A DNA stretch of 64,000 nucleotides from a virus: IMG/VR virus record IMGVR_UViG_3300018080_000115, positions 12,695 to 76,694 of that record. One strand, 5' to 3'. Of this stretch, positions 4,183 through 60,270 are shown piece by piece. Each line of letters begins with the position of its first letter. Position 1 is the stretch's first letter. The notes under the pieces are model-generated. The model searched no databases, was not told where the DNA came from, and worked only from the letters and a program-made list of their open reading frames with translations. Both the position numbers and the translations under genes were made by a program.

Positions 4183-4296
4183 TTGCTTCAACATCGCCTG
4201 AAGCATCCACTTCAACCTGAGCAATGACAAGTTCTTGATTTATTGACAAATCCAACATACCATAACTGCAACAATCAGGAGTCACACAACAATCCA

Positions 4297-5550
4297 ATGC
4301 CGCTGATTCTGTCACACAAGATTCGACTGAAGCCGAACAACAAGCAGGTTGCTCATCTGAAGCATGCTTGTGATGTGTCTCGATTCGTCTACAATTGGGC
4401 TTTGAATCAATGGCAACGGATGTTTGAGGCAGGCGAGAAGCCGTCTGCAAACAAGATCGACAAGCGTTTCAATCAAGTCAAGAAACAGTCCTATCCATGG
4501 GTTTTGGATGTCAGCAAATCTGTACCGCAGATTGCAATCAAGAACCTTGGGCAGGCATTCAAACGATTCTTCAATAAACAATCGAAATATCCACATTTCA
4601 AACGAAAGAATAAGTGTAAGAATTCGTTTGGATTGCAGAATAATCAGTTTGATATAAATAACAAAATCATTCGACTGCCCAAGCTGGGCAATGTTCGGAT
4701 ATACAATGCATTGCATTTCTCTGGAAAGATCATGTCTGCAACCATCAGTCAGACTGCTGACAGATGGTTTGTTTCGATAACTGTTGAGGTTGACTTTGAT
4801 CCATCAACAATCAGACACGAAAACCAAGGTTTGATCGGGATCGATGTCGGACTCAATAGTTTTGCCGTACTCAGTACGGGTCATTCGTTTGATGCGCCGA
4901 AACCATTGAAGCATGCTTTGAGACAGTTAAAAACACTGAACAAGAAGCTGTCTCGACAAATCAGATTATCCAACAACTGGAAAAAGACAAAACAGAGGAT
5001 TGCAAAGCTGTACTATCGCATCAGTTGTATTCGAAACGATTTCCTGCACAAGCTGACTTCGTTTCTGACACAACGATTCAACGGTATTGCAATCGAGAAT
5101 CTGAATATCAAAGGCATGCTTCGAAACCATCGATTGGCACGATCGATCAGTGATGTTGCTTGGTCTGAATTCAGAAGACAGTTGGAGTACAAAGCGGAAC
5201 TGTACGGTTCAGAAATCGCTGCAATCGATCGATGGTTTCCAAGCACGCAGACGTGTTCGAACTGTGGTGAGCGCAAACAAGGAAATGAGAAACTGAAGCT
5301 TGGTGATAAATTCTATCACTGCGATCATTGCGGTTTTGAAGCGAATCGCGACTTCAACGCTGCAATCAACATCAGAAATCAAGGGTTCAACCTTGAGTCG
5401 GCCGATGGCTTGTCGGCCAAGAAGCCTGTCGCCTCATTGGTCAATAGTTTCAATGCATCAGTGCTGAAGCCAAACCATGATTGGGCAGGAAGTTTTCATG
5501 GGTCTGCTGTAGATAGTGCTGCGACAATGCAGTCACAGCGGATTCAGTAA
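4297..5550 (+). CDS. tnpB: TnpB RNA-guided endonuclease (IS200/IS605 family, no TnpA nearby)
   Basis: N-terminal HKIRLKPN HTH; RuvC motifs GIDVG, IAIENL, RDFNAAINI; zinc ribbon CSNC..CDHC. Confidence 0.95.
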   Translation: MPLILSHKIRLKPNNKQVAHLKHACDVSRFVYNWALNQWQRMFEAGEKPSANKIDKRFNQVKKQSYPWVLDVSKSVPQIAIKNLGQAFKRFFNKQSKYPHFKRKNKCKNSFGLQNNQFDINNKIIRLPKLGNVRIYNALHFSGKIMSATISQTADRWFVSITVEVDFDPSTIRHENQGLIGIDVGLNSFAVLSTGHSFDAPKPLKHALRQLKTLNKKLSRQIRLSNNWKKTKQRIAKLYYRISCIRNDFLHKLTSFLTQRFNGIAIENLNIKGMLRNHRLARSISDVAWSEFRRQLEYKAELYGSEIAAIDRWFPSTQTCSNCGERKQGNEKLKLGDKFYHCDHCGFEANRDFNAAINIRNQGFNLESADGLSAKKPVASLVNSFNASVLKPNHDWAGSFHGSAVDSAATMQSQRIQ

Positions 5551-7157: not shown

Positions 7158-7174
7158 TTGGCATGCTCCATGCT
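7158..7174 (+). promoter_or_regulatory. sigma54-type promoter P1
   Basis: TTGGCATGCTCCATGCT, GG-N10-GC. Confidence 0.7.
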
Positions 7175-7223
7175 ACTGTTACAAGACAACGAACACGCAA
7201 CCACTCGACGAAAGGACAATCCA

Positions 7224-7517
7224 ATGTCGAAGAAAATCGCAGAGCCCAAGTGTTACGGACAGTACAGCGGACAGTACAACGACGGTCAGCCTTGGACGCA
7301 AGAATGGTACACGTCCAAGAGCCGCGATGCCAGCAAGCGCACGCGCATGCTGCGCAAGCTGGGTTTCGCCTGCCGCAGCGAGTCCATGGGCTACCAGACG
7401 GGCACGGGCTACAACATGACGCTCATCAGCATCGAAGCTGCTGCACACGAGCTGCCGCCTGTCGAGATGAAGAATCGCACGCAGGAACGCAACGAAATCG
7501 CCGCGTTCTTCAACTAG
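7224..7517 (+). CDS. Small protein, CYG/W-EWY/LPPV family member 1
   Basis: GAAAGGACAATCCA-ATG; motif shared with four other ORFs. Confidence 0.75.
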   Translation: MSKKIAEPKCYGQYSGQYNDGQPWTQEWYTSKSRDASKRTRMLRKLGFACRSESMGYQTGTGYNMTLISIEAAAHELPPVEMKNRTQERNEIAAFFN

Positions 7518-7598: not shown

Positions 7599-7898
7599 AT
7601 GACCGACCGACAATGGAGACAACAGCTTCAAGAAGAAAGAGCTGCCAGAAACAAGGCCATGCGTGAACGTCAAGCACAAAAAAACCAAAAGATCAAAACG
7701 CAGATTCCAGTTACGGTACGATTCTGCGGAGAAGTCTGCAACCCCAACTGCGACTGCTTCAAGCGATCCCGCGACGGCTACAAATGCATCCTGACCGGCA
7801 AGCCTGACAATCTGGCGAGGCATGAAAACTACAACATGAACGGCGGCGCACACGGCATGCTGCGCAATCCAGCATGTTTCCAACAGTTCGGCGAATAG
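7599..7898 (+). CDS. Cys-rich hypothetical protein
   Basis: AAGGACAGAATC-ATG; FCGEVCNPNCDC..KC..PAC. Confidence 0.65.
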   Translation: MTDRQWRQQLQEERAARNKAMRERQAQKNQKIKTQIPVTVRFCGEVCNPNCDCFKRSRDGYKCILTGKPDNLARHENYNMNGGAHGMLRNPACFQQFGE

Positions 7899-8316: not shown

Positions 8317-9249
8317 ATGAAAAAAACAACAAAACCGGAAGACAGAGTCATCTTCGAATGCGTCTCAGGCAGTCACGCCTACGGCATGAACACGCCGGAA
8401 AGCGACACGGATCTGAGAGGCGTCTTCGTCCCTCCGCTCGACTGGTGCACGGGATTCATCAAGCGCGAAAGTCAATTCTCAGGAGACAGCAACGAAGATC
8501 GAATCATCTACGAGATCAGGAAGTTCTTCCGCATGGCCGCAGACGCCAACCCGAACATCCTGGAACTGCTGTGGATGCCGCAAGACTGCATTCTTCAATT
8601 CCACTCGTCTTGGAAACGCATCCAAGACCACCGAGAACTGTTCCTGAGCGCCAAAGTACGCCACACCTATACCGGCTACGCATTTTCACAACTGAATCGC
8701 ATGAAGCGTCACAGAGAATGGCTTCTCAATCCGCCTGAACGCGCTCCCAAATGGTCGGACTTCGGCATTCCAGACGAAGACGAAGCACGCCAAAAGATCA
8801 CCAAGGACATCAAACGCCTGAGCGAAGCCGGTATCGACCCCATGAAGACGCATGGCGAATTCGTGAAGAACAGCGGGTCCTACAAACGAGCTATGGAAAT
8901 CTGGCAACACTACCAGGAATGGAAGCTGAACCGGAACCCGAAGCGAGCGGAATGGGAAGCGAAATTCGGGTACGACTCGAAACACGCATCACACCTTGTT
9001 CGTCTTCTCAGACAGGGACACGAAATCATCACGACCGGCGAAGTCATCGTCAGACGACCGGACGCGAAAGAACTGCTTGCGATCCGCAACGAAGGGATTT
9101 GGTCCTATGACAAGCTGATCGCCTACGCCACAGAAATGGAAGAGAAGATCAAGAACGACGCAGCAGCGGAAACATGCAGTCTGCCGCAAAAGCCGAACAG
9201 AGAACTGCTCAACGAATTGTGTGCCTCAATCATCGAACGATTTCTGTGA
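8317..9249 (+). CDS. DNA polymerase beta-superfamily nucleotidyltransferase
   Basis: GSHAYGMNTPESDTDLRGVF; ANPNILELLW; YDSKHASHLVRLL. Confidence 0.9.
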   Translation: MKKTTKPEDRVIFECVSGSHAYGMNTPESDTDLRGVFVPPLDWCTGFIKRESQFSGDSNEDRIIYEIRKFFRMAADANPNILELLWMPQDCILQFHSSWKRIQDHRELFLSAKVRHTYTGYAFSQLNRMKRHREWLLNPPERAPKWSDFGIPDEDEARQKITKDIKRLSEAGIDPMKTHGEFVKNSGSYKRAMEIWQHYQEWKLNRNPKRAEWEAKFGYDSKHASHLVRLLRQGHEIITTGEVIVRRPDAKELLAIRNEGIWSYDKLIAYATEMEEKIKNDAAAETCSLPQKPNRELLNELCASIIERFL

Positions 9250-9287
9250 GACACGACGCGCGCAACACGATTCAGAAAGAACATGTC

Positions 9288-9944
9288 ATGAGCCTCAAAG
9301 AAGAGACGAAAAAGAGTCTTCCGAAAATCAACCACAACACAAACAAACTCACCGTATATGAAACACTGTTCAACGGCGGCGCATGCGTCGAAGACCAACA
9401 AGTCGGCTTATGGCTTCTCAAAGACAAAAAGATGAATCCGATTGCATGGATCGACGAAGCAAGAAAAGAACCAGACGACATCACAAAACCTCTTCCGCCG
9501 CCATGCAAACTCATCGAAAGCCTTGAAGAATTTCTTGACGGTCAAGGAAGACTGCTTGTGCATCTTCCAATCGAAACCTGGATTGAAATGTCCAAAGAAA
9601 CGGCGCGTACATTCGTCAGAAAAGCAAAGCGCATTCATTATAATCTGCATGCCAAACATTATAATCTGCATACCAAAATCGAACAGCTTCCGCCGCCCGA
9701 TTCCAATTACGATCTGAGCTGCATCGAAATCCGAATTACACTTGCCATCAGAATCAACCCCATCATAGAACGCGAAACATACCAAGTGCGTTGCTATCGA
9801 ATTCGACCAATCGAAAGAGAAAATCCGTTTCTGATGACATTGCTTCCAATTCCAGGCTCAAACATGAAGTCCATCACGGCACACTGGTCACAGCAAGTAG
9901 AACAGCTCTATGAATGGAAACGATATTATCCATCCAAAGCATAG
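9288..9944 (+). CDS. Hypothetical protein, ETLFNGG family member 1
   Basis: YETLFNGG..PF..P..HW shared with 10372 and 24697. Confidence 0.7.
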   Translation: MSLKEETKKSLPKINHNTNKLTVYETLFNGGACVEDQQVGLWLLKDKKMNPIAWIDEARKEPDDITKPLPPPCKLIESLEEFLDGQGRLLVHLPIETWIEMSKETARTFVRKAKRIHYNLHAKHYNLHTKIEQLPPPDSNYDLSCIEIRITLAIRINPIIERETYQVRCYRIRPIERENPFLMTLLPIPGSNMKSITAHWSQQVEQLYEWKRYYPSKA

Positions 9945-29448: not shown

Positions 29449-29455
29449 TTCTTCA

Positions 29456-29525
29456 CCTGTAATATAAATCTCCTGATTCCTCAATGATTTCAAGGGTGCG
29501 CAAAAATCGACGATTTTGCGCAGAC
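29456..29525 (+). repeat. Third copy of the ~70 bp element
   Basis: Near-identical to 28265-28334, including the TGCGCAAAAATC..GATTTTGCGCA palindrome. Confidence 0.85.
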
Positions 29526-29888
29526 CAAAAGCGTTCACAAAGCTTAGCACAAGGGAAGATAATGAACGCATGCAGACTGTTCCATGGAGTGTCATACCCC
29601 GCTGTACCGATCGATTACGAACACGAAACAACGGCGTCCCGAACGGACAACGGTTCTTTGAAAAGAAAAAGCCAACAACGGGCAGTGCTTTTTCCTTCAC
29701 AGCTCCCGAACAAGAACCGTATACGTCCTGATCTTCTCTATCCTTTCATATCTTCTTCGCCGTTGTCTTCAATCCACACATCACGCGAAAGCGGTTTGTC
29801 TCAGCTCCCACCCAAATCTGCCGCTTCCCGCATGACGCTGCTCTCTTGACGACGCGGACACTCCAAGCCTGTATGCTCCCACCCCATT

Positions 29889-29920
29889 GAAGCGGCACAA
29901 TACGTGCCGCTTCTTTTTTT
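29889..29920 (+). terminator. Intrinsic terminator
   Basis: GAAGCGGCAC-AATAC-GTGCCGCTTC followed by T7. Confidence 0.8.
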
Positions 29921-30989
29921 GTCACAGTAATTCCGGTTAAGACCGGTCAATTAACCAGAACCTCGCTACCTGCAACCGGGACGCTCAGCCTGCACCAAAA
30001 CCATATAACTCGTTGACGTTGCTTGGTTTTTCAATACACGCATCAGCCGCCGACAAAAGGAGGACAAATAATGGCCGAATTCATCGCTCCATACACAAGA
30101 ACAGTCATGTTGCGTCTAATAACGCGGACGGCAACTAATTTTCCCAGTGACGTCAAGCATTTACAGCAACACTGTTATCAAGGAAAACAATAATGGCGCT
30201 TGCATAAGCTATCATCTTATAGACAGCGCACACCGCGTAACATTATCGCATTCTCTTTGAGGAATAAACCAGCGATTCCAATACGTTGCAAACCCGTCCG
30301 CTCAGATGCCGCTGCCCAAAACACGCCAAACAGCAAGCCCTTCCAATCTAAACGTCAAAATGGATTCCAAAAAACGCCCTGATTCCAAACACTAATCGAC
30401 ACTCAGAGCATGCATCCAGCATTCATAAGTTATTGAGGCTCATGAGAGCACTCTGCCCGAACAAAATCAGCGGCGTCCCGGAAGACCCCGGAAGAAAATA
30501 TCCGAAGGGGCGGAAGCCGAATTAGACTTGAACCGAGCCCGGATCATGCGTATGATCAGCACAGAGACGGCATGGTGAAACACAATGCGCCATGTCGACT
30601 TCATGAAGACGGAGCGCGGTGGATTACGGGCGACGGTGTGAAGTTCCTTGAACAACGGGAGTGTCTTGCCTGCACAATACGGAAATCAGCCTTCCGTGTG
30701 CAAGTACCCGAAAGCACTGCCAAAAGCCCTTAAGCTCAAGCCGCACCACTCACGTCTGCACATGCTCTGTAAGGACTGCATGTGCCTCCTTTCACGAGAA
30801 GGACCGGAGCAGCATGCTTCGGTCCTTCTGTGCTTTCAAACGCTGAACGCATCCACAACGGCGTCCCGATCAGTACAACCCCGCACCGCTTCCTCTGTGG
30901 CTCGAACCGGTTCGAATTGATTTGAACTGCAGGGAGCCGACCTTGAATATTGCATGTCCGCGTAATCGAACACGATGCGACAGAAAAAC

Positions 30990-31500
30990 ATTTCTGAACA
31001 GGAATCAGTAACACGATTTATATAATCAGCATAAACTAAAACATGGTAGTTCTAGTATATAGTTTTATCAAGCAATATAGTGTAGACGATTACAAATCAC
31101 ACCTAACTGCGCGACGTCGCGTAACTTTTCAGTCACGGCGTTATGCTCACGCGGTGATAAGTAACACGCTAGAGTAAATAATCAACCGCGAATATATAAG
31201 AGGGGCGTGACACTTGTTGCATTTTATGCAACATGGCCATCAAATAAACTGACCCCTGGGTCAGCACGGCAATTATGCATAACTTTGCTTTAATTATGGT
31301 ATATTTTCGTTTAAGCAAGGTTTAAACTCTATCAAAAAGCACAGTAAAACACAAAAAAGTACAATTAAACATAATTAATTTTAATTTTGCCTCTTTGGCC
31401 TATAATTGATCTATAATTAGCCACCAAAGGGTCATTATTATGCCAAAATTGTATTAAATCTGCTACAGTTTTCATAAAGTTCTCTAAAGGCCATTTTGAA
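30990..31500. other. AT-rich non-coding core; replication origin candidate
   Basis: Strongly AT-rich, no credible ORF; + strand appears to shift from C/A-rich to G/T-rich here (judged by eye). Confidence 0.4.
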
Positions 31501-31718
31501 GGCCATACGGTTTTGCCTTATACAAGAATCATTCGCGTCCATCTTGCGCTGTACTGACACGACCAGTGCGCGATCATTTGTCTACCATCCACGCCAGTCT
31601 CATAATGTACGTGTGAGTCGTGTCGTGTTGTGTCGTGTTATGGCGTGTGCCGTATTGTCGTGTCGTACCGTATGCATTGTCGTATTGCCGCGTACCATAT
31701 TTTGCCGTATGCCGCAGC

Positions 31719-31819
31719 GTGGTGTTGTTTATCGTTTCGTGTGGTGTGGTGTTGTTTGTCGTTTCGTGTGGTGTACCGCAGTGTGGTGTGCCGCAGTGTG
31801 GTGTGCCGCAGTGTGGTGT
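31719..31819 (+). repeat. GT-rich tandem repeats (27 bp x2, 15 bp x3+)
   Basis: GTGGTGTTGTTT(A/G)TCGTTTCGTGTGGT x2; GTGTGGTGT(A/G)CCGCA x3. Confidence 0.9.
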
Positions 31820-31943
31820 TGTTTTGCCGTATGCTGAAGTATCGTGTTGTAGTGTCGTGTGTTGTGTGTACCGCAGTGTTGTGTGTGCTGCAGTGTGGTG
31901 TTGTGTTTCCGTCTGCTGTGCCGTGTGATGTATTGTCGTGTTA

Positions 31944-32031
31944 TGTGGGAATGATGCCTGTGGTGTGTGGGAATGATGCCTGTGGTGTGTGGGAATGATG
32001 CCTGTGGTGTGTGGGAATGATGCCTGTGGTG
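31944..32031 (+). repeat. Perfect 22-bp tandem repeat x4
   Basis: TGTGGGAATGATGCCTGTGGTG x4 with no spacers. Confidence 0.95.
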
Positions 32032-32370
32032 TGTGGTGCGGTGCAGTGTTTGTGTAGGGGTTCCTTCGTATTTTGTGTGATGCCCATGGTGCGGTGCGGC
32101 GGTATTTTCCGCCGTCTTGTGTGGTGTGTTTGTGACAAATCGTCTTTTTTTCTCTTTCGTTGTGTTTGGTTGTTGTATGTTGTTGTCGTGTTTTCCCTCT
32201 GTCGACGGTTTCTGTTGTTTCAGATTTTGGATTTCCGTCGTATTGGGATTTGTCTTTTGTTGGTTGCGGATTTTGCGTGCGGCATCGATTTTGGGATGGA
32301 TAGGATTTGAGGTATGAGGAGTGCGGGTTGAAAAACGGAAGAGAGAGAGATTGAGAAAGGCGGTTTTGCG

Positions 32371-33147
32371 ATGACTGCGAATCATGATCGGGATCATTCG
32401 GATGCGGGATCTTCTGGTGTTTTGGGCGACATTGAGCCGAAGAACGATGGGCGTGACGGTTCTTGCGATTGCGGCGGGTGTCGTGACGGCTGTTCGTGTT
32501 CCGGTGTTGAGGATGGCGACGTGGTCGGGATGTTCGTTTCCCGTTCTGCCGATGCTCTGGTTGTTTCTTCTTCTGTCGCTGCTGTCGGCCGTTTCGTGTC
32601 TGGCGGCGTTGATTTGACGGTTCGTGTGGGGGGTGAGGTTGCGGTTCATGTTGAGGATGGGTTGATTTGTCAAAGCGTCGAGACCGCTGATGGTTTGGAG
32701 TGTGACGTTTTTGACGGCGTTTGTGTTTCGGTTCAGGATCGTTTTGTGGAGCAGGCTGCGTATTTCGAGTGTAGGGGTGTTGTAGATTCGTGTCGTGTGC
32801 TGATTGACGTAGATGATGTTTCGGGCGATGTCTCGAAGGTTGATCTGAATACGTTTCGCGGCGTTGGTCCTGAAGAGGTTGAGATTTCGGTTGGCGGTTC
32901 GTCTGGTTCTGATGACGTCGATTCGGATTGTTCGGGTTCTGATGCTGAGGAGTGCAACCGTATGTTTTCGATTCGTCAGACCGATGCCGACCGTGTTTTT
33001 CCGAAGCCGATGCCTGTGTTTCATTCTCATGCTGTCGAATCCGGTTCTTCGGGTTCGGGTTCGGGTTCGGGTTCGGGTGACGCTTCATCTACTCCCGATG
33101 TTTCCGGCGATGACGGCGATCTGCGAAGAAGGTCGATAAGCAAATGA
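32371..33147 (+). CDS. Acidic D/V/S/G-rich protein
   Basis: GAAAGG SD; ATGA-coupled to the next gene; (SG)n linker. Confidence 0.5.
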   Translation: MTANHDRDHSDAGSSGVLGDIEPKNDGRDGSCDCGGCRDGCSCSGVEDGDVVGMFVSRSADALVVSSSVAAVGRFVSGGVDLTVRVGGEVAVHVEDGLICQSVETADGLECDVFDGVCVSVQDRFVEQAAYFECRGVVDSCRVLIDVDDVSGDVSKVDLNTFRGVGPEEVEISVGGSSGSDDVDSDCSGSDAEECNRMFSIRQTDADRVFPKPMPVFHSHAVESGSSGSGSGSGSGDASSTPDVSGDDGDLRRRSISK

Positions 33148-41000: not shown

Positions 41001-41448
41001 ATCCGATTCGTCGCCGTCGAAGATGCCTGAAATGTACAGCAAGACTGCATCCAACATCAGTCATTGGCTTCTGGAATACATCCATAAAATGACAGGCAAA
41101 TGGACCACGACGGATTTGATTGTCGGAGCCGTCTGGTTCCAGTTTGAAGACCGAATCACGCTGCGCTTGACCGGTTCAAGCGCCCTGAAGACTCTTGTTG
41201 AATTCAGACAAATCGTACACGACAACGGATGTTGGCAAGAACAGCCTGGAAGTTATCGCATGTTCTTCCCGTTTCCAATTGAGGATGACGATCCTTACCG
41301 AAAGACGGACATGGTCCAAGTCAACATCCCGCTGCGCGTCATCGTGGAAAACCTGCGAATACTTGCGCTGAAGGTCGAGCATGAAATCAATGTCGAAATT
41401 CGGTTCGATGCAGAATATATCGAATTGTCGAAAGGAACCGAATCATGA
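38014..41448 (+). CDS. 1144-aa membrane-anchored protein with acidic Cys-rich linker and about four diverged repeats
   Basis: N-terminal TM; W-L-I-x-x-I...W...I-R-L...V-H-x-S-I recurring. Confidence 0.8.
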   Translation: MMEAIFFGLFLLAFMLGYCFHMGTASYRSFRYRLGRARSIAEMLGIVFGIKLEPVKDNVEATVSESEEHFAFGIDDIDEDESLEEEACSSETCGEHGEHCPNPCGMYENKEDAESEGDGLAVWTSNILDYEDEADSLDDEEMTPEEEATCNPEVCGAYGSDHCGVCARDDDCMIQKIAACDPETYAEPCSARTVEVEQADGSTKQFTVSVPAKFIPINHNKLLNHEGHIQHIIDTLKEAIRRCIFESIVPFDKMQPWAADILMGRAPARFPLVAKCWERDSSSNRIRLVIGKLSKLIDIKSESDLHVQHGDEFYDPYIQWEAVQEASDFDYIARNILCLMRDGTWKVEVGVHDSIVHLESPSEEEELDFFQKLNLEMDQQEVMKERAEVVAIQEKKIRHNQRINQLSLLFNSPFSLNASSQFIKVPIAQLMAPIGILSPAPELEATVKHVKWLIDRIHEKYAFYNIDTTMSYCFKISAIWSRSYDGTIRIAICSQKIAEAYLERVLSDEGKDGYSIQQDVSLFSFAKELAAASLKKADAKVWHGIHLLVHESLSDPEVMEAFYKAVAERSQTTTNVDESEEYQVHEIKEKQDRIIKSGIMNKETACPTTLDVSFDMYLVQWSKTKPQWAIFKEPFEWLKENDEYCRRTKHYVSDASFMIVHHPRENDDLIFDLTIDHQSKFDSRFGFTKPQPRKKALDDHDKVKQLYNCPKDKSFNLLEKLKELDLINNKGGGIVALPEYLWWNTSIQEMVRFLMFFIGCGATFHLKPFSTNGGNMDTTENSQSSQSNKSHGDSIIKGFFVDDDEFIKNRKIYQKPDFIPYSSSIENWLINHISAVSQEGYHLCRKEGLNKKTFRCCVLWRKASFSDRQEGSLIYTEGVRVMLCGQSVMQDPMLNPSRDRLSVGSFRIRKDNPVEDETDESTGGHEEFRWEEVDWKQVLVQEDRLLSEIVQNLVSVCSTDSNKNRLIWVEVHPSIADYANKTTAAKDDLESILELTSDSSPSKMPEMYSKTASNISHWLLEYIHKMTGKWTTTDLIVGAVWFQFEDRITLRLTGSSALKTLVEFRQIVHDNGCWQEQPGSYRMFFPFPIEDDDPYRKTDMVQVNIPLRVIVENLRILALKVEHEINVEIRFDAEYIELSKGTES

Positions 41449-42242
41449 GCATGGAATTATCCAAGAAATGGGGCATGTTCCCTGATCCGATTGTGGGACA
41501 AGAGCATGTGAAGCGTGCGGTTGAAGTCGCTTGCGCCGGTCTGCATCAACTATGCATTGTCGGGCCGCCCGGTTGCGGCAAGACGACATTGGGCAAATGG
41601 TGTGAGCTGATTCAAAGAGAAATCGAAGTGTTCCAAAACCCCAAAGGGGGAGGGCATATTTCTGATTTTCATCTGCTTGATGACCAGAAAGCGCGTTCCG
41701 AAACATCATGCGCCGTGTCCATGGATTACTTGATTTGTCCATGCGGTTTCTTGACGTCCGAACAGCGTGTTTGTACATGCACAGCTGAAGAAATCATACG
41801 TTACAATTCTCGAATGGAACGGCTGACCGATTGCGCTCAAATGCACGTTGAGTGTGCGATTCTGAAATTTTCTGAAAAAGAGGTTCGGAATTTCTTCAAG
41901 ACCGGCAAGGAACGTACGCCCATCGAATCCCTCTTGGACAGGGTCAAAGCCGCTCAGCAAAGACAATTTCACCGTCAAGGCAACCCGAATTCAACAGCCT
42001 CATTCGAAGCGATCTTTCTAGGCTTCAAGGACAAGTCTCGTTCAAGCAAGATCATGAGTCTGTTCAAAATGTTCATTGATCGGCTGGGAATGAGCATGAA
42101 ACAGGCGACGCATATGATTCGAGTCGCCCGAACGATTGCAGATCTCGATGAATCGGACGTCATTAAGGAAGCGCACATGCTCGAAGCAGCGCAATATCGG
42201 AGTCAGCCGATCCGAACACAATGGAAGCACGATGGCGAATAA
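41445..42242 (+). CDS. Truncated, degenerate ComM/YifB (Mg-chelatase-like) AAA+ protein
   Basis: IVGQEHVKRAVEVACAG, GPPGCGKTT, CPCG..CTCT, IRVARTIADL..EAAQYR. Confidence 0.85.
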   Translation: MSMELSKKWGMFPDPIVGQEHVKRAVEVACAGLHQLCIVGPPGCGKTTLGKWCELIQREIEVFQNPKGGGHISDFHLLDDQKARSETSCAVSMDYLICPCGFLTSEQRVCTCTAEEIIRYNSRMERLTDCAQMHVECAILKFSEKEVRNFFKTGKERTPIESLLDRVKAAQQRQFHRQGNPNSTASFEAIFLGFKDKSRSSKIMSLFKMFIDRLGMSMKQATHMIRVARTIADLDESDVIKEAHMLEAAQYRSQPIRTQWKHDGE

Positions 42243-42489
42243 ACGAGACATGCTGAAGCGGATCACGGATCTGATCAAAACGCACAAGGCAAACATTGCT
42301 AAACTGAAGTCTAAGATCAAAGATGCAGAATACAATGTTGGACTGATATCAGAACAGATGTCAGATTTTCATTTTAAGATCAGAAGGCTTCAAGAACTGT
42401 CTCGCAAGGTGATGCAAGCCAGACGCGCGAATGATGTCCAGGATGAAGTCGAGCAAGCATTGCACGAAACATGCAGCGGTGCAATCTAG
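42232..42489 (+). CDS. Coiled-coil protein (TAG stop)
   Basis: Overlaps the upstream stop. Confidence 0.6.
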   Translation: MANKRDMLKRITDLIKTHKANIAKLKSKIKDAEYNVGLISEQMSDFHFKIRRLQELSRKVMQARRANDVQDEVEQALHETCSGAI

Positions 42490-42510: not shown

Positions 42511-43080
42511 ATGTCGGTACTCGGAGAAATGAATCGGAATGAGCGGGAAGCATTCGCGGAAGCTGTGCGGAGTCATGCGGAAAAGCTTTACGCGATGGGA
42601 TGGAGAAGCGCAGCGATTCACAACGAAAGCGAACGCCTCATGAACGGCTTCTATTTCGTCTGGCATGCGCTTTCCAATATCATCGTAGGCAATTCCAATC
42701 AAGCGGTTTTAAACCGTGATGAACAGCACAAGCTGATGTCATACATGCATGACGAAAGACGCGACGTCATGTCTGCGCTGGAAAAAATCGGCCGCTTAAA
42801 AAGAATAAACATTCCATACGACAAAGAATCAATACACAAAGGCGATTTAGTAATAATTGAATGGAAGAACCAAGAAGGGAAGCTGATCACGCGGCAGACA
42901 GGTTTTGTTGATTCTCAAATCGATGACAAGCAGGTAATGTTGACAGGAGCTGTCAGCCCGAAAGCCTTGATCGGCCTTTCCGGACCATACTTGCTTACCG
43001 CATACACACAAGGAAGAAACGTTCATGTCGGACGCATTCAATTGAATTACAATGGCATCTTGAAAATCAAGGAGAATTGA
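42511..43080 (+). CDS. Hypothetical protein
   Basis: AAGGAAGG SD. Confidence 0.65.
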   Translation: MSVLGEMNRNEREAFAEAVRSHAEKLYAMGWRSAAIHNESERLMNGFYFVWHALSNIIVGNSNQAVLNRDEQHKLMSYMHDERRDVMSALEKIGRLKRINIPYDKESIHKGDLVIIEWKNQEGKLITRQTGFVDSQIDDKQVMLTGAVSPKALIGLSGPYLLTAYTQGRNVHVGRIQLNYNGILKIKEN

Positions 43081-55466: not shown

Positions 55467-55611
55467 ATCATGGACAAGCCAAGCAAGCTGTATTACATTC
55501 AAACCAACAAGGAGAGACGTCATGCCTTCTTAGCGACGCAACAAATCCCCGCCCGGTTTCCTTTCAGAGGTTCGCTTCACAAAGCATCAACCCGAACGAA
55601 AGGAAATGACC

Positions 55612-55929
55612 ATGTCAGAAATGAAATTCCAAGCAGAATGGGATTGGGAGAATGCGACTCAGGCCGACATCGATTGGCTTCGAGAACGCGCCGCCGAACT
55701 GATCCAACGTGCATCCGATGCGACAGGCATCCTGGCAAAAGACAAGAAATCAGACGTTTGTCGTCATCATGACATCGATGAATTCGACGTGGAAAGCCTG
55801 TTGAGAGATCAAGCCGAATTCAACTTCGAAGACGAGAAATACCTTGGATGCTCAGATTGGGAAACAGAATACATCAACAACAAAATCCCATGGAGCGAAA
55901 TTTGCCGACTCTCTGAACAACTAGACTGA
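55612..55929 (+). CDS. Acidic hypothetical protein
   Basis: GAAAGGA SD. Confidence 0.65.
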   Translation: MSEMKFQAEWDWENATQADIDWLRERAAELIQRASDATGILAKDKKSDVCRHHDIDEFDVESLLRDQAEFNFEDEKYLGCSDWETEYINNKIPWSEICRLSEQLD

Positions 55930-55966: not shown

Positions 55967-56470
55967 ATGACCAAGTTCAAGCAATTCAAGGCAATCCAGA
56001 AGAAGCGTGCCGAGATCATCCGTCACAACAAGCGTCTGGTGCGCAGTTCCGACCAGATGCATGCCATGATCGATCAGGACAGCTTGCTGTCGCACCGAAA
56101 CGATTCTCAAACCGATGATCACAGCGAAATGCACCACATGTTTTCCATGTGGAAGTTGCACAACAACCTGCGAGTCGCCAAAACCAATTATCGGCTGAAT
56201 CACATCGCTTGGTCTTTGGCGAAGAAAAGGCTGACAAACGACCAGCAAGCGAAGGACTACTACAGCGAGCGCATCGAATCGAACTGCAAGCATCCATTGT
56301 CCGATGAACAGTGGAAGATCATCCTGATGATGCGTGACAGGATGTTCTGCGCCTATGATCAACACAAGCAGATGCAGTGCATCAAACGTAACGAAGAGCT
56401 GAAGACAAAGATGCAGCCGTTGCGTACTGATGGAGAAGCCCGTATCATCGAAGTTCCCGATATGATCTGA
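55967..56470 (+). CDS. Hypothetical protein
   Basis: GAAAGGA SD. Confidence 0.7.
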   Translation: MTKFKQFKAIQKKRAEIIRHNKRLVRSSDQMHAMIDQDSLLSHRNDSQTDDHSEMHHMFSMWKLHNNLRVAKTNYRLNHIAWSLAKKRLTNDQQAKDYYSERIESNCKHPLSDEQWKIILMMRDRMFCAYDQHKQMQCIKRNEELKTKMQPLRTDGEARIIEVPDMI

Positions 56471-56480
56471 TCCGACAACC

Positions 56481-56556
56481 GAGCGTGTAGTTCAATGGTA
56501 GAACGACAGACTCTAAATCTGTGTCAGTCTTGGTTCGAATCCAAGCACGCTCACCA
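56481..56556 (+). tRNA. tRNA with anticodon CUA (amber suppressor)
   Basis: GAGCGTG/CACGCTC acceptor, GTTC/GAAC D-stem, ACAGA-CTCTAAA-TCTGT anticodon arm, CTTGG-TTCGAAT-CCAAG T-arm, A73-CCA; 76 nt. Confidence 0.92.
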
Positions 56557-56595
56557 AGATTCGACGGGGAAGGACATCCTTCCCCATTCCGAATT

Positions 56596-56671
56596 GGGCG
56601 CGTAGTTCCAATGGAAGAACGCTTGTTTTGCATGCAAGAGGTTGCGGGTTCAAATCCCGTCGCGTCCACCA
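56596..56671 (+). tRNA. tRNA-Ala (UGC)
   Basis: GGGCGCG/CGCGTCC with G3:U70, loop TTTGCAT, TTCAAAT T-loop, encoded CCA. Confidence 0.95.
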
Positions 56672-56692
56672 TTTTCTCCATGGAGCACAGTC

Positions 56693-56887
56693 ATGACGGT
56701 CAAAGAACTTCGAGAACTGATCAAAGACATCCCGGACGATTGGGAAATCAAATCGGCTGACGACAACGGCGATTTGTTTGAAGTGGAAATGAAGCTGATG
56801 GCCAAGAAAGTCAAGGACGACGGCGATCCTGCCATCGATGACGATCCGCGCGCAAAGGTATCGATCGTTGTTGTTTTTGACGCTTAA
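56693..56887 (+). CDS. Small acidic protein (MTVKELRELIK..)
   Basis: GGAG SD. Confidence 0.65.
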   Translation: MTVKELRELIKDIPDDWEIKSADDNGDLFEVEMKLMAKKVKDDGDPAIDDDPRAKVSIVVVFDA

Positions 56888-56904
56888 GGTTTGGAGCAAA
56901 AGCC

Positions 56905-57201
56905 ATGCACCAAGAAGCGGCCGAAGAAATCTTCGAAGATGTCAAAACGCACATCCTCGATCACATCAATGACAACGGCAAAACAGACGAAGACGGGCGC
57001 AAATCCATGCGCGTCATGTCCCTCATCGTCAAGTTCCGCCGCGATCTTCCGCCGCATGCGCAAGGCTTCCAAGTCATTTCAAGCTACGTCGACATGCTCT
57101 TGATCGAAATGCAGCGTGAAGGCATGGTGAAGCTGATCCGCAATGAAAAGCGTAAATCAAACCTGCACAGCCAATTCGAACGGTGCATATTGACCATCTG
57201 A
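56905..57201 (+). CDS. Hypothetical protein
   Basis: GGAG SD. Confidence 0.6.
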   Translation: MHQEAAEEIFEDVKTHILDHINDNGKTDEDGRKSMRVMSLIVKFRRDLPPHAQGFQVISSYVDMLLIEMQREGMVKLIRNEKRKSNLHSQFERCILTI

Positions 57202-58269: not shown

Positions 58270-59577
58270 ATGAAAATCCACAGATCCCACAAGATTGAAT
58301 TGAAGCCAAACAATGTGCAGTGCGGCTATTTCAGGCGTGCTTGCGGCATTGCGAGGTTTGTCTTCAATTGGGGCCTTGCGGAATGGAAACAGCAGTACGA
58401 AGCAGATGAGAAGCCAAGCAAATTCAAGCTGAAAAAAGAATTCAATGCGATCAAGCACGATGCGTTTCCATTTGTGACTGAAGTGACAAAGTGCGCTGCT
58501 GAGTGCGCTTTCGATCGTCTTGGAACAGCATTCAAGAACTTCTTTCGCAACATCAAAGCAGGAAACAAGCCTGGATATCCTCAGTTCAAGCGCAAAGGAA
58601 AGTGTAAGGATTCATTTTATCTAGCTAATAATCAATTTAGTATAAATAGAAACAAGATTAGAATTCCGTTGTTGGGTTGGGTTCGAATGAGAGAGTGTCT
58701 GCGTTACAGCGGCAAGATTCTATCCGCAACCATTAGTCGAACCGCTGAGAAATGGTTCGTTTCCATAAGCGTTGAGATTGACATTGATGAACCAGCCAAT
58801 CGTGAAACCCAAGCGTTGGTCGGTATTGATGTTGGACTCAACAGTTTCGCAATCCTGAGCACTGGCGAATCATTCACTGCACCGAAGCCATTGAAACACG
58901 CTCTGAAAAAGTTGAGACAGTTGAACAAAAAGCTGTCTCGACAGATCAAAGGATCGAACAACAGAGAGAAGACCAAGCAAAAGCTTGCAAAGCTGTACTA
59001 TCACATCAGTTGTGTTCGAAACGATTTCACGCACAAGCTGAGCACTGTTTTGCTGAAGTGCTTCAGCGGAATTGCAATCGAGGATCTGAACATCAAAGGG
59101 ATGATCCGCAACAGAAATTTGTCGAAATCGATCAGTGATGTTGCTTGGTCTGAATTCAGACGTCAACTCGAATATAAAGCAGAAGCGTTCGGTTCGAAAG
59201 TGATTGCAATCAATCAATGGTTTCCGAGTACGCAGCAGTGTTCACAGTGCTGTTCGCTCAAGGATGGCGACGAAAAATTGAAGCTTGGCAATGAAACCTA
59301 TCGTTGTGATCATTGCGGTTCAGTGATGGATCGTGACTTGAATGCAGCGATCAACATTCGAAACGAAGGATTCAACCTCAGTCCGTATTCTTTCGCCGCT
59401 GGCTTGGCGGTTTCATTGGAATCATCATCTCAGCTAAACGATTCCAGTGATGAGCCTGTCGTCTTGGTTGTCACTGCCAAGGATGTTCATCCTTCGGATA
59501 CATCCTTGATCAAACACCATTGGGCAGGAAGTTTTCATGAACCAAATGATACTATGATGGTTCAATCGATTCAGTAA
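58270..59577 (+). CDS. tnpB: TnpB RNA-guided endonuclease, copy 2
   Basis: HKIELKPN; GIDVG, IAIEDL, RDLNAAINI; CSQC..CDHC. Confidence 0.95.
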   Translation: MKIHRSHKIELKPNNVQCGYFRRACGIARFVFNWGLAEWKQQYEADEKPSKFKLKKEFNAIKHDAFPFVTEVTKCAAECAFDRLGTAFKNFFRNIKAGNKPGYPQFKRKGKCKDSFYLANNQFSINRNKIRIPLLGWVRMRECLRYSGKILSATISRTAEKWFVSISVEIDIDEPANRETQALVGIDVGLNSFAILSTGESFTAPKPLKHALKKLRQLNKKLSRQIKGSNNREKTKQKLAKLYYHISCVRNDFTHKLSTVLLKCFSGIAIEDLNIKGMIRNRNLSKSISDVAWSEFRRQLEYKAEAFGSKVIAINQWFPSTQQCSQCCSLKDGDEKLKLGNETYRCDHCGSVMDRDLNAAINIRNEGFNLSPYSFAAGLAVSLESSSQLNDSSDEPVVLVVTAKDVHPSDTSLIKHHWAGSFHEPNDTMMVQSIQ

Positions 59578-59601: not shown

Positions 59602-60270
59602 ATGTCATGGCTTGGATTCAAGAAGCTGCTCTATCGATGGAGCGTCAAGCGAGGAAAACTGTACTCAGGCTGGTCGAAGCACATTCAGAAACTTGACAAA
59701 CAATACATCGGCACTCGACCGAATTGGGGAGATCTGACTCCAAAGGTTGCTCAGGCGATCATGAACAAGATTCAATGGCGCGAAGACGATTGGAAGCGTC
59801 TAGGCGACGCATTCCGACACCCTGACGTTGGAGACCACTTGTTCAACTGCATCATTCGCGGACACGGAGACAACCCGGATGATCTTGCCAATATGCCGCG
59901 CAGCAAGATTCCAGGCCGAATCATGCATTACAACAAAGGGCATGGACAGCCGCCCAACGAGCCGTTTGATTGCGATGAATTCAGCCTATGGTGCGCCACA
60001 CGGCTTCAGGCTCGATACGACGTCCGCATTCTCAATGTAGTCTGGTCGACCGGGAAGAAACTGCAAGACATCTCCGGTCACAACCTGTGCCTGATCAAAA
60101 TGGAGAATGAACACGGCGTCCGACGCTACTATCACATGGGGAATTGGGGAACCTATGGCGGATTCCGCACCGTCAATGAAGCGGTTGCGGACGTCGTCAG
60201 AAAAGCCGGTTCAAACCGCCTGATCGGATGGCACATGTACAACCCCCGTGAGCTGTACCGCAAAAAGTAG
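59602..60270 (+). CDS. Putative transglutaminase-like cysteine peptidase
   Basis: AGGAG SD; FDCDEFS (DCDDFA-like), GHNLCL, HMGNWG: candidate Cys-His-Asn/Asp triad. Confidence 0.55.
   Translation: MSWLGFKKLLYRWSVKRGKLYSGWSKHIQKLDKQYIGTRPNWGDLTPKVAQAIMNKIQWREDDWKRLGDAFRHPDVGDHLFNCIIRGHGDNPDDLANMPRSKIPGRIMHYNKGHGQPPNEPFDCDEFSLWCATRLQARYDVRILNVVWSTGKKLQDISGHNLCLIKMENEHGVRRYYHMGNWGTYGGFRTVNEAVADVVRKAGSNRLIGWHMYNPRELYRKK

Follow-up and report, generated by a model that had tools for sequence, protein, structure and literature searches.

A tRNA with a CUA anticodon in a sediment phage that keeps TAG as a stop codon, and a candidate suppressor-gated gene upstream of it

To our knowledge, the only role that has been worked out for phage suppressor tRNAs is the recoding of stop codons, either across a whole genome or block by block, and we know of no target for the suppressor tRNAs that have been reported over the years from standard-code phages. 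In phages with recoded stop codons, recoding is heaviest in the lysis genes and affects structural genes as well; suppressor tRNAs also occur in the standard-code relatives of such phages, where they have been read as a step that precedes recoding (bioRxiv 10.1101/2021.08.26.457843). The Xanthomonas jumbo phage XacN1 has two CUA tRNAs, and in silico read-through of all 18 of its terminal TAGs pointed to no target (PMC5852040), while the Klebsiella phage PhiKp24 carries a tRNA-Sup (PMC8386662). Given the precedents of XacN1 and PhiKp24, an orphan CUA tRNA in a standard-code phage is already known, though unexplained.

The tRNA described here, which has a CUA anticodon and belongs to a myovirus from sediment, resembles those of XacN1 and PhiKp24 in several respects. 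In each case a canonical stop-reading tRNA is found in a TAG-using myovirus that has no aminoacyl-tRNA synthetase or release factor of its own, and reading through the terminal TAGs reveals nothing. However, in XacN1 and PhiKp24 the tRNA is part of a large array, whereas here it is one of only two, and while no target has been reported for XacN1, in the present case a candidate can be named, namely a TAG at codon 4 of a probably co-transcribed ORF that has a masked internal ribosome-binding site. With the code-15 phages (crAss-like, Lak and 'Garnet/Topaz'; bioRxiv 10.1101/2021.08.26.457843, PMC9523058) it has in common a phage tRNA(CUA) in a standard-code host and presumed charging by a host synthetase. 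It differs from them in that the genome is unrecoded, TAG is undepleted, the GC content is 49%, RF2 is absent, the phage comes from sediment rather than gut and the acceptor end of the tRNA has neither of the Gln identity elements U1-A72 and G73. What is new is the occurrence, near the tRNA, of a codon-4 UAG together with a masked internal start, an arrangement that suggests a suppressor-gated gene.

The stretch of DNA that was analysed (hereafter the window) is 64 kb long and corresponds to positions 12695-76694 of a linear contig of 138,362 bp with a GC content of 49% and an estimated completeness (CheckV) of around 70%. All coordinates are those of the window unless another frame is given. 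A contig in ENA (147.6 kb) extends the sequence by a further 9.3 kb and breaks off within the terminase gene. This is a novel myovirus whose major capsid protein is of the T4 Gp23 type. Its other head and packaging genes are those for a T4-type portal, a prohead protease, a head-tail adaptor and a fragment of the large terminase, its tail genes encode a sheath, tube and baseplate hub, and among its replication and metabolism genes are those for ThyX, RusA, a gp32-like SSB, a DnaB helicase and a polymerase of the DnaE type. Cultured phages are about 30% identical in capsid or polymerase, no DNA-level match to the contig was found, and its relatives in IMG/VR number only two, both of them fragmentary, with capsid identities of 77% and 67%, and both without tRNAs. 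A phage synthetase or an RF2, which the preliminary description of the locus had suggested looking for, was found nowhere on the contig: it has no tRNA-synt_1c, _2, _1b or _2b domain and no PCRF domain, the mark of a full RF1 or RF2, and its only release-factor-type domain is that of a stand-alone RF-1/GGQ gene. RtcB is likewise absent from the contig. The lack of a phage synthetase, of a PCRF-type release factor and of RtcB implies that the tRNA would depend on host enzymes.

The tRNA gene lies at positions 56481-56556 on the plus strand, in a block of small orphan genes. It is 76 nt long, encodes its own CCA end and is recognised by ARAGORN and by Rfam model RF00005, which it matches over the full model with 69.6 bits (gathering score 29). 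ARAGORN and Infernal place the anticodon, CTA at 56513-56515 (plus strand), in the same register within the loop CTCTAAA. The cloverleaf has an acceptor stem GAGCGTG/CACGCTC, giving G1-C72, with A73 as the discriminator; a D arm with a 4-bp stem (GTTC/GAAC) and a 7-nt loop containing the GG of G18-G19; a 5-bp, A-U-rich anticodon stem, with U33, A37 and A38 in the loop and the run A36-A37-A38; a 6-nt variable loop, GTCAGT, with G26 opposite G44 and unpaired; and a T arm, CTTGG-TTCGAAT-CCAAG, with a canonical T loop. The conserved tertiary nucleotides U8, A14, G18-G19, A21, G53-T54-T55-C56, A58 and C61 are all present. The complete canonical cloverleaf of the preliminary description is thus upheld in every structural detail by ARAGORN, by Rfam and by the sequence itself.

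The label that ARAGORN gives to this gene, tRNA-Pyl, does not stand. When the tRNA was compared with the architecture of tRNA-Pyl, that is, a 6-bp anticodon stem, a 3-nt variable loop, a small D loop lacking G18-G19 and an atypical T loop, its anticodon stem was found to have 5 bp and its variable loop 6 nt, its D loop to contain GG and its T loop to read TTCGAAT, the canonical form, and the D loop with G18-G19 and the canonical T loop indicate that the label reflects the anticodon alone. The CUA anticodon, U33, A37-A38 and A-U-rich anticodon stem are shared with supF and supE of E. coli and with T4 psu1+. The resemblance to supF had earlier been taken for a Tyr-type arm, but the arm is not specific to tRNA-Tyr, since the same one occurs in working tRNA-Asn and tRNA-Gln of phages and bacteria. 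In contrast to the CUA tRNAs engineered by Normanly et al. (1990), as represented in PMC1483225, the present tRNA is a natural gene with no recognisable parent isoacceptor. A sequencing error in the anticodon had also been considered beforehand. The locus is identical in three other assemblies, a Logan contig (0 differences over positions 56000-57000), a JGI contig and the 147,624-bp contig in ENA. As all three probably derive from one sediment sample, their agreement excludes an assembly error, would still admit a population variant and does not amount to independent biology.

The neighbouring tRNA-Ala of the preliminary description was found again by both ARAGORN and Rfam RF00005 (60.9 bits) at 56596-56671 on the plus strand. 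Its anticodon is UGC, its isotype profile points to Ala, and ARAGORN reports no tRNA other than these two on the 138,362-bp contig. They have in common an unusual D arm, GTTC/GAAC, and their acceptor stems are similar, but despite this likeness G3-U70 is absent from tRNA(CUA). The 39-nt spacer between them contains an 8-bp GC-rich hairpin (56566-56585, plus strand), GGGGAAGG-ACAT-CCTTCCCC, with no T-run after it, which is probably a processing or spacer element. An Rfam scan found no HDV-like ribozyme, theta ribozyme or other Rfam family adjoining tRNA(CUA).

By several measures the phage uses the standard code and retains TAG as a terminator. A codon-usage model built on the contig yields 188 genes and a coding fraction of 89%, with stops distributed as TGA 131, TAA 36 and TAG 21. 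With two further TAG-ended genes, one at 9174-9944 and the other a 557-aa gene beside that for the portal, around 22 of 190 genes (at least 21-23) end in TAG, which is 11-12% of stops or about one in nine, the dominant stop being TGA and not TAA. When TAG was treated as a sense codon, the total model score fell to 8273 from 8436 and coverage was not raised, whereas a control in which TAA was read as sense did as well or better; the summed gain in ORF length was likewise no greater for TAG than for the TAA control, and ORFs with TAG as sense do not fill the largest non-coding gap (29449-32370). There is no in-frame TAG in the genes for the C-terminal terminase fragment, portal, prohead protease, Gp23 capsid protein and adaptor, nor in those for sheath, tube, baseplate hub, DnaE and helicase, and some of the visible late genes themselves end in TAG. 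Three TAG-ended genes have an orthologue in the relatives, and all three stop no more than a few residues from the C-terminus of that orthologue. Collectively the gene models, the uninterrupted genes, the orthologue ends and the lack of a synthetase or RF2 indicate that the standard code holds throughout the visible genome, late genes included, and code-15 recoding (TAG to Gln), whether genome-wide or of the late genes, is rejected for the 147.6 kb seen, in which in-frame TAGs are missing and TAG is still a terminator.

These results support the main reading of the preliminary description, that of a genuine amber-type tRNA carried by a phage without code-15 recoding. Its view that conserved genes are uninterrupted extends to structural and replication genes alike, and the comparison of codes 11 and 15 that it proposed comes out, on the contig, in favour of code 11. 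The TAG stops it had listed, at 7517, 7898, 9944, 27731, 42489, 51834 and 60270, all end TAG-terminated ORFs, and coding scores are positive for those at 7517, 7898, 9944, 27731, 51834 and 60270.

A gene that the tRNA may serve lies on the same strand 950 nt upstream. At 55509-55514 (plus strand) there is a Shine-Dalgarno sequence, AAGGAG, which is among the strongest in the genome, is unpaired in the centroid fold and lies 7 nt ahead of an ATG at 55522. The frame that begins here reads ATG CCT TCT TAG (55522-55533, plus strand), with the amber triplet (55531-55533) as its fourth codon. Beyond this, the same frame continues without a stop for 24 codons (55534-55605, plus strand) into an acidic orphan ORF (55606-55929, plus strand) that measures 107 aa from an ATG at 55606 and 135 aa from 55522 through the TAG. 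The ORF has a coding score of 0.30 per codon. The segment between TAG and ORF scores weakly, at 0.10 per codon against a gene average of 0.20 (sd 0.06), and is predicted by AF2 to be disordered. The ORF matches nothing in Pfam, PHROG or Atlas, has no homologue among the 5.8 billion and 1.8 billion proteins searched (sensitive phmmer included), and in a single-sequence AF2 prediction folds with a pLDDT of 50. A PTH2-like hydrolase (PF01981) was sought in six frames of the contig with no match. A sigma-70-like promoter match upstream (TGGACA-17-TACATT, 9/12; 55471-55499, plus strand) is at chance level, with one site found and 1.5 expected in shuffles. Between the candidate client and the tRNA there is a single ORF, an orphan of 167 aa (55967-56470, plus strand), which ends 10 nt before the tRNA and hence implies co-transcription with it, and neither a promoter nor a terminator is predicted between client and tRNA.

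Such sites are scarce in this genome. A scan of both strands for a strong Shine-Dalgarno and ATG followed by up to six codons, any stop and at least 100 open codons, the criteria of which were fixed after the candidate had been seen, returned a single site across the whole genome, the TAG at 55531 beside the tRNA. An early stop occurs at 28 of 178 strong Shine-Dalgarno and ATG sites (TGA 16, TAA 6, TAG 6), and the other five TAG sites are inside genes or on the wrong strand. Among genes that have an in-frame TAG upstream and a start no more than 10 codons before it, one has its ATG behind a strong Shine-Dalgarno, and this is the ATG at 55522. By chance, around 0.28 TAG cases with a long open frame would be expected per genome, and about 0.01-0.05 within a few kb of the tRNA.

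The candidate client also has a start of its own, an AAGGA Shine-Dalgarno with ATGs at 55606 and 55612 (55600-55614), and this is masked by a hairpin (55554-55609, plus strand) that appears in both the MFE and the centroid folds. Its 5' arm, UUUCCUUUC (55557-55565), lies within the read-through segment and forms a perfect 9-bp helix with GAAAGGAAA (55598-55606), the stretch that contains both the AAGGA and the first base of the ATG at 55606. The hairpin has a predicted dG of -16.4 kcal/mol, compared with -8.3 (sd 2.5) for shuffles, a difference of about 3 sd that 0.6% of shuffles reach, and it provides the longest Shine-Dalgarno-masking complement among the 139 Shine-Dalgarno and ATG sites of the genome; the fold of the leader region as a whole is no better than that of shuffles (z = 0.23). 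The UAG at 55531 ends around 24 nt short of the masking helix.

The ermC and cat leaders work by leader-peptide attenuation, in which a hairpin masks a Shine-Dalgarno sequence until translation upstream opens it. The locus is like them in having a short upstream frame with a strong Shine-Dalgarno, followed by a hairpin that sequesters the Shine-Dalgarno and ATG of the main ORF. It differs in that both frames are in the same reading frame and in that the proposed trigger is the phage tRNA rather than stalling caused by a drug or an amino acid.

On this basis, we propose that the suppressor tRNA has a specific client, the ORF with UAG as its fourth codon that heads the tRNA's own operon, an explanation to which we give about an even chance of being correct. 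It includes the view that tRNA(CUA) would be a functional elongator tRNA that is expressed, charged and decodes UAG, as its sequence and predicted structure suggest, and that the ORF depends on it. Ribosomes would load at the AAGGAG, start at the ATG at 55522 and meet UAG as the fourth codon. Without the phage tRNA, a tripeptide would be released 24 nt before the hairpin, and the hairpin would lock the internal ribosome-binding site, so that little or none of the candidate protein would be made. Translation of the upstream frame would end 24 nt ahead of the hairpin, so that only read-through of the UAG could open it. After its excision from this same transcript and aminoacylation by a synthetase of the host, tRNA(CUA) would compete with RF1, and ribosomes reading through in frame would melt the hairpin, which may also make the internal start accessible, and produce the 135-aa protein. 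More tentatively still, and in our judgement somewhat doubtfully, tRNA, codon-4 UAG and masked ribosome-binding site may form a self-contained translational switch, in which the first gene of an operon is translated only after a tRNA encoded downstream has been processed and charged. A single-gene gate with a masked internal start was not encountered in the literature searched. Regulated read-through of selected genes had been one of the options raised in the preliminary description, and it now has a concrete candidate in the codon-4 TAG of the ORF at 55522.

Other possible targets were considered and rejected. Read-through fusion of a 171-aa ORF with the RF-1/GGQ gene (positions 98932-99831 of the genome) is contradicted by the homologues of the GGQ protein, which begin where the ATG of the GGQ gene lies, and for the ORF upstream there are no homologues. 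For the pair 42232-42489 and 42511-43080, the downstream gene has a Shine-Dalgarno of its own, AAGGAAGG, while neither the fusion of 7158-7517 with 7599-7898 nor a 102-codon extension of 59602-60270 gives any family match. In-frame neighbours are equally frequent across TAA and across TAG.

The main alternative to a tRNA with a dedicated client is an orphan suppressor, which would bring about low-level read-through at all UAG stops and act as a buffer against amber mutations or as a first step towards TAG recoding, as in the model of Borges et al., in which acquisition of the suppressor precedes in-frame TAGs, the TAG at 55531 being the stop of a chance three-codon ORF in a 5' leader. We regard this account as unlikely, albeit a serious competitor. 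XacN1, PhiKp24 and the standard-code relatives of recoded phages all provide precedents for it (PMC5852040; PMC8386662; bioRxiv 10.1101/2021.08.26.457843), and it is consistent with the weak coding score of the read-through segment and with the scan as a whole, in which, when all stop types are taken together, the single case of Shine-Dalgarno, ATG, early stop and long ORF compares with 1.3 expected by chance. However, the undepleted TAG and the GC content of 49% fit poorly with a low-GC, stop-depleted beginning of recoding, and the TAG-ended genes have no nearby backup stops, the median extension beyond them being 24 codons as against 15-17.5 elsewhere (p = 0.21). The account also leaves unexplained the coincidence, beside the tRNA, of a TAG-ended mini-frame, a continuous frame and a masked Shine-Dalgarno. 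In other genomes, no orthologue of tRNA(CUA) was found in IMG/VR, JGI metagenomes or GTDB genomes (two metagenome matches proved to be a coding region and an unrelated tRNA-like sequence), and no relatives of the candidate client or of its 167-aa neighbour were found in the collections searched. Two unrelated CUA tRNAs, at IMG/VR loci L030 and L039, have no TAG-gate pattern beside them.

It is improbable, in our view, that the tRNA instead serves genes with in-frame TAGs that lie off the contig, such as a lysis cassette or tail fibres, through block-wise recoding of the kind seen in some crAss-like phages. This is retained as a rival because the contig is incomplete, being linear and extended only by the 9.3 kb from ENA, and because no lysis genes were found on it: searches for lysozyme, Amidase_2 and SLT endolysins were all negative, and it is the lysis genes that are most recoded in recoded phages. 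All of the visible late genes, on the other hand, are free of in-frame TAG and some end in it, whereas structural genes are recoded in known TAG-recoded phages, and the absence of RF2 and of any PCRF domain speaks against it as well.

The amino acid that the tRNA would carry bears both on the proposed gate and on the further possibility that the tRNA is a recent mutant. Its body is Asn/Gln-like and its acceptor end (G1-C72, A73) is Lys-like. The sequence from the 3' half of the D arm to the end of the anticodon stem-loop recurs in IMG/VR in tRNA-Asn(GUU) 41 times and in tRNA-Gln(CUG/UUG) 31 times, some of the tRNA-Gln anticodon arms differing from that of tRNA(CUA) at position 36 alone. In GTDB genomes 15 of 16 exact matches to the D arm are in tRNA-Asn, which is also the closest tRNA in E. 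coli, and only for the D and anticodon arms do nearest-neighbour searches return Asn or Gln. The Asn and Gln tRNAs that share the arm carry U1-A72 and G73, whereas tRNA(CUA) has G1-C72 and A73, as tRNA-Lys does. Isotype profile HMMs, which are crude, were built from more than 400 phage tRNAs with the anticodon masked and classed the tRNA-Ala control correctly, give ambiguous scores for tRNA(CUA) of 35.5 for Asn, 34.0 for Trp, 31.8 for Lys and 24.4 for Gln.

Identity elements are no more decisive. The E. coli Gln set consists of U1-A72, G2-C71, G3-C70, G10, Y34, U35, G36, A37, U38 and G73, and the Lys set of U34, U35, U36 and A73, and class I engineered CUA tRNAs are charged in E. coli by default with Gln or Lys by virtue of U35 (PMC1483225). 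The Gln set does not fit a suppressor derived from tRNA-Gln, like supE, as tRNA(CUA) has five of the ten Gln elements (G3-C70, G10, C34, U35 and A37), with G1-C72, A2-U71, A36, A38 and A73 at the remaining positions. Of the four Lys elements it has two, U35 and A73, with C34 and A36 in place of U34 and U36. By E. coli identity rules, Lys or Gln would be a best guess and no more. The preliminary description had held that the charged amino acid cannot be assigned from sequence, a caution that is justified by the ambiguity of the isotype profiles and identity elements alike, and because of this ambiguity efficient charging is not assured.

A tRNA of the Gln, Asn or Lys type might have gained its CUA anticodon by a recent point mutation and be idle or provide transient amber rescue. 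The single base that separates its anticodon stem-loop from that of a phage tRNA-Gln(CUG) would fit such an origin, as would the lack of a CUA orthologue among the collections searched, the sampling of a single population and an acceptor end that suits no one isotype. We nevertheless consider it improbable: the conserved tertiary nucleotides are all in place, the Rfam score is high, no close tRNA with a sense anticodon was found, the acceptor stem and 6-nt variable loop are unlike those of the Gln and Asn tRNAs that share the arm, and no essential gene has an internal TAG that would call for rescue. It is known that phage tRNAs can counter defences that cleave tRNAs, and the small orphan genes around the locus are typical of host-takeover regions, but a non-decoding role here, whether as a decoy for host tRNAs that anticodon nucleases attack, as a replacement for them or as some other counter-defence, an option raised at the outset, is very improbable, since a CUA anticodon restores the decoding of no sense codon, RtcB is absent and nothing at the locus points to defence.

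The proposal of a dedicated client can be put to the test on a fragment of 1.2 kb, in which a leader with UAG at codon 4 and an internal start that is masked are found together with the tRNA and two ORFs. What would be tested is whether one tRNA is the key for one gene. Should the gate fail, this would be one more orphan suppressor, and as a non-gut, mid-GC and TAG-using case it would count against a route to recoding in which stop-codon depletion comes first. Should it hold, it would be a natural single-gene amber switch that bears on the timing of phage gene expression and might offer a compact orthogonal expression gate. If the fuller switch were true, it could time gene expression or sense the tRNA-charging and RF1 status of the host, and together with the stand-alone GGQ gene it would point to a toolkit for the control of termination in standard-code T4-like phages. 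It would also give orphan suppressor tRNAs, such as those of XacN1, a defined kind of client.

TGA terminates 70% of the genes of this 49% GC contig and, as a trinucleotide, is 5–6 times commoner over its whole length than TAG or TAA, a stop-codon profile that is unusual for a mid-GC genome. Outside the window, the contig also encodes a stand-alone release-factor catalytic domain protein of 125 amino acids (PF00472 RF-1, 1e-18; genome 98932–99309, minus strand, corresponding to 2238–2615 of the segment L003), in which GGQ is intact and the codon-recognition (PCRF) domain is absent. This protein resembles domain 3 of RF1/RF2 more closely than it does ArfB and falls in phrog_3122, whose members are small proteins from phages and metagenomes. 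Its gene starts two codons past a TAG-ended 171-aa orphan ORF in the same frame, with the TAG lying inside the Shine-Dalgarno sequence of the release-factor gene (GGGATAGGA). Since the homologues start at their own ATG, fusion with the upstream ORF is not required.

CUA tRNAs are also present in two unrelated IMG/VR phage contigs, L030 (position 10458, minus strand) and L039 (position 6834, minus strand), where they likewise have G1-C72, A73 and the loop CTCTAAA, and both contigs carry large tRNA arrays. No gene with a Shine-Dalgarno sequence and an early TAG was seen in the retrieved flanks of these two tRNAs.

In a 754-aa DnaE-type polymerase ORF (L003:4020–6284, genome 100714–102978, minus strand), the match to the family profile begins only near position 441 of 1190. 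The N-terminal PHP part is found neither within this ORF nor directly upstream, so that the polymerase is possibly truncated or split. In the 502-aa ThyX (L003:7769–9277, genome 104463–105971, minus strand) the Thy1 domain falls in two separated stretches, which suggests that the protein carries an insertion. A 'tRNA-Arg with a 749-nt intron' called across this gene in the intron mode of ARAGORN is spurious.

Within the window, 2.9 kb (29449–32370) contain no convincing gene, whether read in code 11 or with TAG as sense. Degenerate GT-rich repeats (31615–31970) and five 22-nt tandem units (31916–32047) occur here, and the stretch is overlapped by a 504-aa minus-strand ORF (31574–33088) that matches no family and is in competition with ORFs on the plus strand. 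Further along, a Mg-chelatase/ComM-like AAA+ gene (41445–42242; PF01078, PF13335) comes immediately after the gene for a 1144-aa orphan protein and is followed by a small TAG-ended coiled-coil ORF.

Mobile elements comprise two TnpB genes in the window (4243–5550 and 58270–59577), assigned to phrog_506 (the second at 3.5e-113), together with a transposase of the serine-recombinase type (phrog_6620; L001:1111–1692, minus strand) 1.1 kb from the contig start; the structural module of a relative (G002) likewise contains a TnpB gene. The break in the assembly may be due to IS copies. A longer ENA assembly of the same phage (k141_1632495, 147,624 bp) adds 9.3 kb past the prohead protease (L104:1–8861), encoding proteins of 764 and 619 aa, a T4-type portal, a 557-aa protein whose gene stops at TAG and a 205-aa protein, and terminates in the large terminase, of which the C-terminal part is present. 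Between the prohead protease and capsid genes lies the gene for a 951-aa orphan protein (L004:16864–19719, genome 133558–136413, minus strand), which matches no Pfam or PHROG family and is probably an abundant component of the head; its codon bias (score 348) exceeds that of every other gene in the genome by a wide margin.
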